Shown here: positions 11,665-12,509 of the stretch, in pieces
Layout of the letters: each line of letters opens with the position of its first letter
Position numbering within the stretch: position 1 is the stretch's first letter
NCBI RefSeq assembly: GCF_003334815.1
Contig: NZ_QOWO01000044.1
Reading direction: 5' to 3' (one strand)
From: Escherichia coli
Lineage (GTDB): Bacteria > Pseudomonadota > Gammaproteobacteria > Enterobacterales > Enterobacteriaceae
Length of the DNA: 29,333 bases
Program-made: the position numbers and the translations under genes
Notes under the pieces: generated by a model
The model's input: only the letters and a program-made list of their open reading frames with translations
What the model was told of the DNA's origin: nothing
Database searches by the model: none

Positions 11665-12498
11665 ATGGATAATGCTGTTGATCGCCACGTTTTTTATATT
11701 TCTGATGGTACGGCAATAACTGCGGAGGTATTAGGACACGCAGTAATGTCACAATTTCCCGTCACTATCAGCAGCATCACGCTGCCGTTTGTCGAAAATG
11801 AGAGCCGTGCACGGGCAGTGAAGGATCAGATTGACGCAATTTATCACCAGACAGGCGTGCGCCCGCTGGTCTTCTACTCCATCGTGTTGCCGGAGATTCG
11901 CGCCATCATCTTGCAAAGTGAAGGCTTTTGCCAGGATATCGTTCAGGCGCTGGTTGCCCCGCTACAACAAGAGATGAAACTGGATCCAACGCCGATTGCT
12001 CATCGTACCCATGGCCTTAACCCTAATAATCTCAATAAATATGATGCGCGCATTGCGGCGATTGATTACACCCTCGCCCACGATGACGGCATTTCGTTGC
12101 GCAATCTGGACCAGGCTCAGGTGATCCTGCTCGGTGTTTCTCGCTGTGGTAAAACCCCCACCAGTCTGTATCTGGCAATGCAGTTTGGTATCCGCGCGGC
12201 AAACTACCCCTTTATTGCCGACGATATGGATAATCTGGTGCTACCCGCGTCGCTCAAACCGCTTCAGCATAAATTGTTCGGCCTGACTATCGACCCGGAA
12301 CGTCTGGCGGCGATTCGCGAGGAACGTCGGGAGAACAGTCGCTATGCCTCGCTTCGTCAGTGCAGGATGGAAGTCGCGGAAGTGGAAGCCTTGTACCGTA
12401 AAAATCAGATCCCGTGGATTAACAGTACCAATTATTCGGTAGAAGAGATTGCCACCAAGATCCTCGATATCATGGGCCTTAGTCGCCGAATGTACTAG
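11665..12498 (+). CDS. ppsR: PEP synthase regulatory protein (bifunctional kinase/pyrophosphorylase, ydiA; 277 aa)
   Basis: ORF track; P-loop [11 protein letters not shown]; divergent from ppsA. Confidence 0.92.
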
Positions 12499-12509
12499 AG
12501 AACTAGTGC
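12492..12509. promoter_or_regulatory. TrpR operator of the aroH promoter
   Basis: GTACTAGAGAACTAGTGC matches the Trp repressor box (GTACTAGTTAACTAGTAC-like); it overlaps the ppsR stop codon (TAG 12496..12498). Confidence 0.7.

Follow-up and report, generated by a model that had tools for sequence, protein, structure and literature searches.

The TrpR operator of aroH is partly written in the end of ppsR and lies in the path of a ppsR-aroH transcript in Escherichia coli

Introduction

The closest described counterparts of the TrpR operator of aroH are the trp operator (trpO) and the operator of trpR. Both share with the aroH box the same 18-bp near-palindrome, with a CTAG in each half and 8 bp between them, and the same mode of action, in which a sigma-70 promoter is repressed sterically. 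In trp and trpR, the operator is placed over the -10 and start region of the promoter. Binding of TrpR to the aroH site and repression from it are attributed to Kumamoto 1987 and Klig 1988, and a further paper places aroH under TrpR control and confines this control to close relatives of E. coli (PMC5343134). The gene directly upstream of aroH is ppsR, and RegulonDB gives the two genes as separate operons. Transcript mapping by SMRT-Cappable-seq has shown that operon boundaries are often crossed in E. coli: 34% of the RegulonDB operons were extended, and read-through of at least 5% was seen at 75% of the termination sites (PMC6131387).

Here, we describe the junction between ppsR and aroH, the components of which are already known: the TrpR operator of aroH, the annotation of ppsR, and the ppsR-aroH transcript, which is contained in a supplementary table from 2018. 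A literature search retrieved no paper that explicitly discusses the overlap of ppsR with the aroH operator or read-through from one gene into the other. What we add is modest and consists of the conservation of the arrangement across the family, the frozen TAC and stop codon at the end of ppsR, the lineage-specific origin of the box and a terminator-like by-product of the operator palindrome.

Results

The window analyzed here, i.e., the whole stretch of 29,333 nucleotides, comprises the ppsA/ppsR/aroH region in its E. coli K-12-type form, and a 1.1-kb query around the site matched many E. coli genomes with annotated ppsR and aroH at 100% identity. Coordinates in NC_000913.3 are obtained by adding 1775780 to the window coordinates; features are collected in Table 1. 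ppsR and aroH reside on one strand with a gap of 156 nt, and the start codon of aroH is the ATG at 12655. A preliminary description of this DNA had stated that the Trp repressor box of aroH includes the TAG stop codon of ppsR. This is correct: the 18-mer gtactagagaactagtgc is found exactly at 12492-12509, and the TAG at 12496-12498 occupies its positions 5-7, in the left half. The left half-site is composed of the last base of ppsR codon 276, codon 277 and the stop codon. Compared with the trp operator consensus GTACTAGTTAACTAGTAC, the 18-mer matches in 15 of 18 positions, with three mismatches and a CTAG in both halves. It is the only sequence in the 29.3 kb that matches the consensus with at most three mismatches, and none of 100 dinucleotide-preserving shuffles yielded such a match. 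The 18-mer overlaps the core promoter of aroH, extending from -48 to -31 relative to the transcription start site (TSS) at 1788320, with an extended -10 element at 12525-12533. Judged by sequence and position, it is the classical TrpR operator of the aroH promoter P1, for which binding by Trp-loaded TrpR is known from the literature. Trp-bound TrpR on 12492-12509 would block the -35 region of P1.

Table 1 Features of the ppsR-aroH junction in window coordinates, with NC_000913.3 coordinates of transcription start sites in parentheses.
Feature	Position	Strand	Remarks
ppsR TSS, origin of the ppsR-aroH bicistronic RNA	11634 (1787414)	+	SMRT-Cappable-seq, PMC6131387
ppsR (ydiA) CDS	11665..12498	+	277 aa, ending ...SRRMY; Met-Tyr-TAG
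Operator-palindrome RNA hairpin	12485..12515	+	10-bp core 12489-12512 plus 2-bp G-C extension
aroH TrpR operator GTACTAGAGAACTAGTGC, 18-mer	12492..12509		-48..-31 of aroH P1
ppsR stop codon TAG	12496..12498	+	-44 to -42 of P1; gives the G of the left CTAG
T/U-run TTATTTTTTT	12516..12525	+	directly 3' of the extended stem; also P1 spacer
aroH P1 extended -10, TGT-TATCAT	12525..12533	+	TSS 7 nt downstream
aroH P1 TSS	12540 (1788320)	+	SMRT-Cappable-seq, PMC6131387
9-bp perfect palindrome CGAGGTGTG-A-CACACCTCG	12547..12565	+	+8..+26 of P1 RNA; -15.6 kcal/mol
aroH P2 promoter-like site, TTGAAA-16-TATCGT	12569..12596	+	consensus scan
Second aroH TSS (P2), downstream of the TrpR box	12603 (1788383)	+	SMRT-Cappable-seq, PMC6131387
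aroH CDS, Trp-sensitive DAHP synthase	12655..13701	+	348 aa
aroH intrinsic terminator	13708..13736	+	GC-rich hairpin, about -21.4 kcal/mol

Conservation of the overlap was analyzed for 80 Enterobacteriaceae loci from species-representative genomes encoding PpsR with at least 90% identity. In 76 of these 80 species, ppsR ends with ATG TAC TAR, and this is followed by N4-CTAGTNC. The strict pattern is present in 73 species, and three Escherichia species deviate in the last base only. Box positions 1-6 and 12-15 are invariant; within the strict set, 62 species have A and 11 have G at position 7. TAA serves as the ppsR stop codon in 62 and TAG in 14 of the 76 species, TGA in none. The left half reads CTAA rather than CTAG in most genera. 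The terminal tyrosine codon of ppsR is TAC in all 76 species; at the seven other conserved tyrosine positions of ppsR, TAC and TAT occur in a ratio of 395 to 345. Third codon positions neighbouring the end of the gene are highly variable. The exclusive use of TAC, the absence of TGA as a stop codon and the variability of the neighbouring sites together indicate that the operator imposes a constraint on the final synonymous positions of ppsR.

The overlap is broken in four Enterobacteriaceae species (loci L070, L036, L033 and L040), around locus position 3832. L070 carries an insertion after the ppsR stop codon and a complete, displaced box, GAACTAGTAAGCTAGTAC, about 25 nt downstream of it (L070:3832-3900). 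An extra glutamine codon is present in L036 (ATG TAT CAA TAA), where the right half-site alone is kept. In L033 and L040, ppsR and aroH are separated by insertions of about 0.2 kb and 1.5 kb, respectively, and neither locus has an adjacent box. The distance between the ppsR stop and the aroH start stays within about 230 nt in 78 of the 80 species (125-228 nt) and likewise in five outgroup genera, to which the synteny extends. These were represented by Erwinia, Pantoea, Dickeya, Serratia and Yersinia, obtained via PpsR homologues. All five retain the order ppsA<-ppsR->aroH and a PpsR C-terminus ending in M(Y/F), and a search for CTAG between ppsR and aroH in these genera gave no hit. In Serratia and Erwinia, GC-rich hairpins followed by T-rich sequence are situated where the box would be. 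The box is present in Klebsiella. As it occurs in Enterobacteriaceae and is absent from the representatives of other Enterobacterales families, we regard the box together with P1, abutting ppsR, as an acquisition at the level of the Enterobacteriaceae, in which terminal codons already present in ppsR were reused as the left half-site. This is in agreement with PMC5343134.

Published SMRT-Cappable-seq data (PMC6131387, Supplementary Data 2) contain three primary 5' ends on the plus strand in this region, one for ppsR and two for aroH. The extended -10 element of P1 keeps its position relative to the box across relatives. The -35 region of P1 is poor and covered by the operator. The promoter-like site assigned to P2 was found by the scan independently of the TSS data, and the second aroH start at 12603 lies 7 nt past the predicted -10 element. 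The -35 element of P2 is nearly invariant across families. P2, located outside the TrpR box, is probably the ancestral aroH promoter. An open reading frame of 389 amino acids starting with the ATG at 12532 was considered as an N-terminally extended version of AroH and was rejected, since this ATG lies in the -10 hexamer of P1 and 5' of both mapped aroH starts; the ATG at 12598, which is in frame with aroH, was rejected together with it. In most relatives, other Escherichia included, a TAG (CCGGTAG) interrupts the frame of the 389-aa ORF.

According to the preliminary description, ppsR transcripts read directly into the operator and promoter of aroH, and there may be read-through or interference between ppsR transcription and the regulation of aroH. 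As the ppsR stop codon lies inside the operator, transcription of ppsR must indeed enter the operator and promoter. Read-through is likewise borne out by the SMRT-Cappable-seq unit b1703-b1704 (ppsR-aroH), which starts from TSS 1787414 and is classified as 'novel' compared with RegulonDB (PMC6131387, Supplementary Data 2-4). The unit is contained in the table of extended operons (Supplementary Data 3), and no other context is given for ppsR in either of the two media. For aroH, two transcriptional contexts are recorded in rich medium, and one of them is ppsR-aroH. TrpR is expected to be Trp-loaded in rich medium, and the bicistronic RNA found there argues against a complete roadblock at the operator. 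Note that the libraries were size-selected for more than 1 kb and under-sample a ppsR-only RNA of about 890 nt ending at the U-run, and that the TSS/TTS table of PMC6131387 is without read counts for TSS 1787414. Read-through into a ppsR-aroH bicistronic mRNA is thus demonstrated for at least some of the ppsR transcripts.

Since the ppsR reading frame ends within the operator, ppsR cannot accommodate a strong terminator of its own. The operator palindrome itself, when transcribed, forms a hairpin with a folding energy of -13.5 kcal/mol (z = -5), in which three G-C pairs are contained in the core and five when the extension is included. UUAUUUUUUU follows immediately at 12516-12525. In a consensus scan of 11300-13900, the operator palindrome with its T-run was the sole terminator-like site. 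Published 3' ends were inspected in two data sets. None maps to the U-tract of the junction among the entries listed in the Term-seq tables of PMC7815308, and none maps to the junction among the entries listed in the TRS tables of PMC10687069, although the aroH terminator is present there with its 3' end at 1789512-1789516, corresponding to about position 13736 of the window. Both RNAs, that of aroH and that of ppsR-aroH, end at this terminator. The missing 3' end at the junction may reflect just the low expression of ppsR. The earlier remark that no intervening terminator is seen therefore needs to be qualified: a marginal, terminator-like hairpin at 12485-12515 is present together with its U-run.

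The 5' arm of the hairpin (12485-12498) is ppsR coding sequence. Hairpin and U-run are kept in divergent E. coli strains, with energies of -11 to -13.5 kcal/mol. Beyond the species, the T-run is confined to the Escherichia/Citrobacter/Salmonella clade, and a U-run preceded by a strong hairpin is limited to Escherichia and the C. freundii group, i.e., to those lineages in which ppsR stops with TAG. In Salmonella, the U-run is present and a stable hairpin is missing; in Enterobacter and Klebsiella, the hairpin is weak and the U-run is missing. RNAalifold analysis of the 76 species yielded invariant pairs and no compensatory changes in the stem. A selected RNA helix at the operator was rejected on this basis, and invariant pairs without compensation are as expected of a protein-binding DNA site. 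We classify the hairpin and U-run of E. coli as a marginal, intrinsic-terminator-like element, for which real terminator activity is possible. While the polymerase crosses the U-run, the 5' arm would be masked by the terminating ribosome, and the efficiency of termination would be low. An AU-rich stem whose 5' arm is covered by a ribosome implies a terminator that is leaky at most. Most likely, the terminator-like element is a by-product of the operator palindrome.

Our comparison also yielded insight into the aroH leader. The stretch 12566-12654 is conserved nearly base for base in Enterobacteriaceae and in Erwinia, Pantoea, Serratia and Yersinia, and not in Dickeya; downstream of P1, the leader exceeds the spacer between TrpR box and P1 in conservation. 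Its conserved parts are P2, a GTGAT-N4-ATCAC motif over the P2 start, a small hairpin and the stretch to the Shine-Dalgarno sequence. This element probably represents the ancestral control region of aroH and is more intriguing than the overlap itself. The near-invariant inverted repeat, cGTGATGCGCATCACt at 12594-12609, overlaps the -10 element and start of P2 and reads TGTGATCGCCATCACT in Yersinia, Serratia and Erwinia. Variation at its centre and the lack of covariation between its arms suggest a protein-binding site. It resembles a CRP site (GTGA-N6-TCAC), but this assignment was rejected: nine matches with up to two mismatches occur in the window, compared with 13 expected, which is not above chance. 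The text of a CRP genomic SELEX paper names ppsA, and not aroH, among the targets.

At the position of the perfect palindrome 12547-12565, Enterobacter and its relatives carry unrelated GC-rich hairpins (CGGGGCG...CGCCCCG), which hints at conservation of a 5'-terminal stem-loop of the P1 RNA rather than of its sequence. In the C. freundii group, this palindrome is deleted along with the -35 element of P2. The small leader hairpin CGGCA-GTCC-TGCCG (12613-12626) shows some compensatory changes, namely G-C to A-U in six sequences and CCAGC...GCTGG in Kluyvera. Neither a permissive Rfam scan of 11300-13900 nor a gathering-threshold scan of the window assigned a family to the junction, the aroH leader or the 12613-12626 hairpin. 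The gathering-threshold matches elsewhere in the window were the Phe leader (pheM/pheST region) and the enterobacterial sRNA STnc540, at 23372-23496 (-) and 19373-19531 (-), respectively, both of them known and without relation to the junction. Two antisense 3' ends were noted. A strong one is located inside ppsR at 11868 (-), NC_000913.3 1787648 (Term-seq table of PMC7815308), and another, at 13697-13706 (-), 1789477-1789486, lies opposite the aroH terminator hairpin (TRS tables of PMC10687069). The latter indicates that this terminator may act bidirectionally.

Discussion

We consider it likely that the known operator of aroH is partly written in the end of ppsR, that ppsR is without an effective terminator so that some of its transcripts continue as ppsR-aroH mRNA, and that aroH is fed by three inputs: the TrpR-controlled P1, the older conserved P2 (TSS 12603) and read-through from ppsR. 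The present analysis or the published record shows the overlap and how far it is conserved, the freezing of synonymous sites in ppsR, the existence of the bicistronic RNA and both starts of aroH. In mechanistic terms, a polymerase starting from the ppsR promoter (11634) would cross the operator and P1, and at least a fraction of these polymerases would go on through aroH to the terminator (about 13736) and produce the ppsR-aroH mRNA. How large this contribution is to aroH expression we can only infer. Both read-through and P2 contribute to aroH expression without starting from P1, the promoter under TrpR control. Together, they may help explain the weakness of aroH repression by TrpR.

The ppsR-aroH junction neatly illustrates how the end of one gene can contain a regulatory site of the next, with the operator fixing the last tyrosine codon of ppsR and restricting its stop codon across a bacterial family. 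It opens neither a new mechanism nor a long-standing question. It is relevant to the engineering of the aromatic amino-acid pathway and to operon annotation, as RegulonDB separates ppsR and aroH.

Several other explanations of the junction deserve consideration. We give hardly any credence to the idea that the overlap arose by chance from the close packing of genes, without selective consequence for either gene. It is true that, in compact bacterial genomes, the end of an upstream gene commonly harbours an operator or promoter, and the displaced box of L070 demonstrates that the operator does not require the overlap. However, the invariable TAC in 76 of 76 species, the avoidance of TGA amid highly variable neighbouring synonymous sites and the persistence of the arrangement across most genera of Enterobacteriaceae are not what an accident would predict. 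It is also very unlikely that operator palindrome and U-run constitute an efficient intrinsic terminator, in which case ppsR and aroH would be independent units and the bicistronic reads rare leakage. The stability of the hairpin and its z-score, the adjoining U-run, the singularity of the site in 11300-13900, its preservation among divergent E. coli strains, the depletion of RNAs below 1 kb from the long-read library and the separate operons of RegulonDB would all fit such a terminator. On the other hand, the calling of the b1703-b1704 unit relied on primary full-length reads, ppsR has no other recorded context in either medium, and the two 3'-end data sets (PMC7815308, PMC10687069) have no 3' end at the U-run among the entries listed. 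Moreover, the stem contains only three to five G-C pairs, its 5' arm at 12485-12498 would be covered by ribosomes, and the combination of hairpin and U-run is missing in Salmonella, Enterobacter, Klebsiella and most other genera.

Two further explanations assign a regulatory role to the encounter between transcription of ppsR and TrpR. TrpR on the operator could act as a roadblock to polymerases arriving from ppsR, such that read-through would be Trp-regulated and both inputs would be under one repressor. The geometry permits this, as each ppsR transcript must cross the occupied operator, and repressor roadblocks of transcription are established for other bacterial repressors. Nevertheless, we deem it quite unlikely: TrpR dissociates quickly from its operators, aroH keeps both of its contexts, ppsR-aroH included, in rich medium where TrpR is expected to be active, and the literature search found no report of such a roadblock. 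As the preliminary description suggested, transcription of ppsR might interfere with the regulation of aroH; this would proceed by occluding P1 or sweeping TrpR off its site and would make repression dependent on the ppsR promoter. The tandem layout, with an upstream transcript crossing operator and P1, is compatible with such interference, and yet we judge it highly improbable. ppsR is too weakly expressed for a called TSS-TTS pair or 3' end in the data sets examined, and collisions should therefore be rare. In addition, the box does not affect P2, which is located further downstream, and no paper on the effect of ppsR transcription on TrpR control of aroH was found in the literature search. 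Finally, the palindrome could be bifunctional, serving as TrpR operator in the DNA and, together with the U-run of the P1 spacer, as a leaky terminator in the RNA that responds to translation and possibly to TrpR and sets the flow from ppsR to aroH. The change from TAA to TAG, a rare stop codon, in Escherichia and the C. freundii group would then have been selected for a better half-site and hairpin. We hold this elaboration to be unlikely and prefer the reading in which the operator is partly written in ppsR, read-through occurs and the terminator-like element is incidental.

When compared with known systems, the aroH box differs from the trp and trpR operators. It is placed over the -35 region (-48..-31) of its promoter, its left half consists of coding sequence and the stop codon of an unrelated upstream gene, and this half is CTAA in most genera. 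ppsR-aroH belongs to the extended operons described by SMRT-Cappable-seq (Yan et al. 2018, PMC6131387); at its junction, no termination site was called, and the operator palindrome is the only terminator-like element. With canonical Rho-independent terminators such as that of aroH (13708-13736), the junction shares a stem-loop directly followed by a U-run. In contrast to the aroH terminator, the junction hairpin is AU-rich, less stable (-13.5 versus -21.4 kcal/mol) and has its 5' arm in a translated open reading frame, and it differs from canonical terminators in lacking a mapped 3' end and conservation across genera. As in repressor roadblocks, transcription from an upstream unit has to pass a repressor site; at this site, the ppsR-aroH context persists in rich medium.
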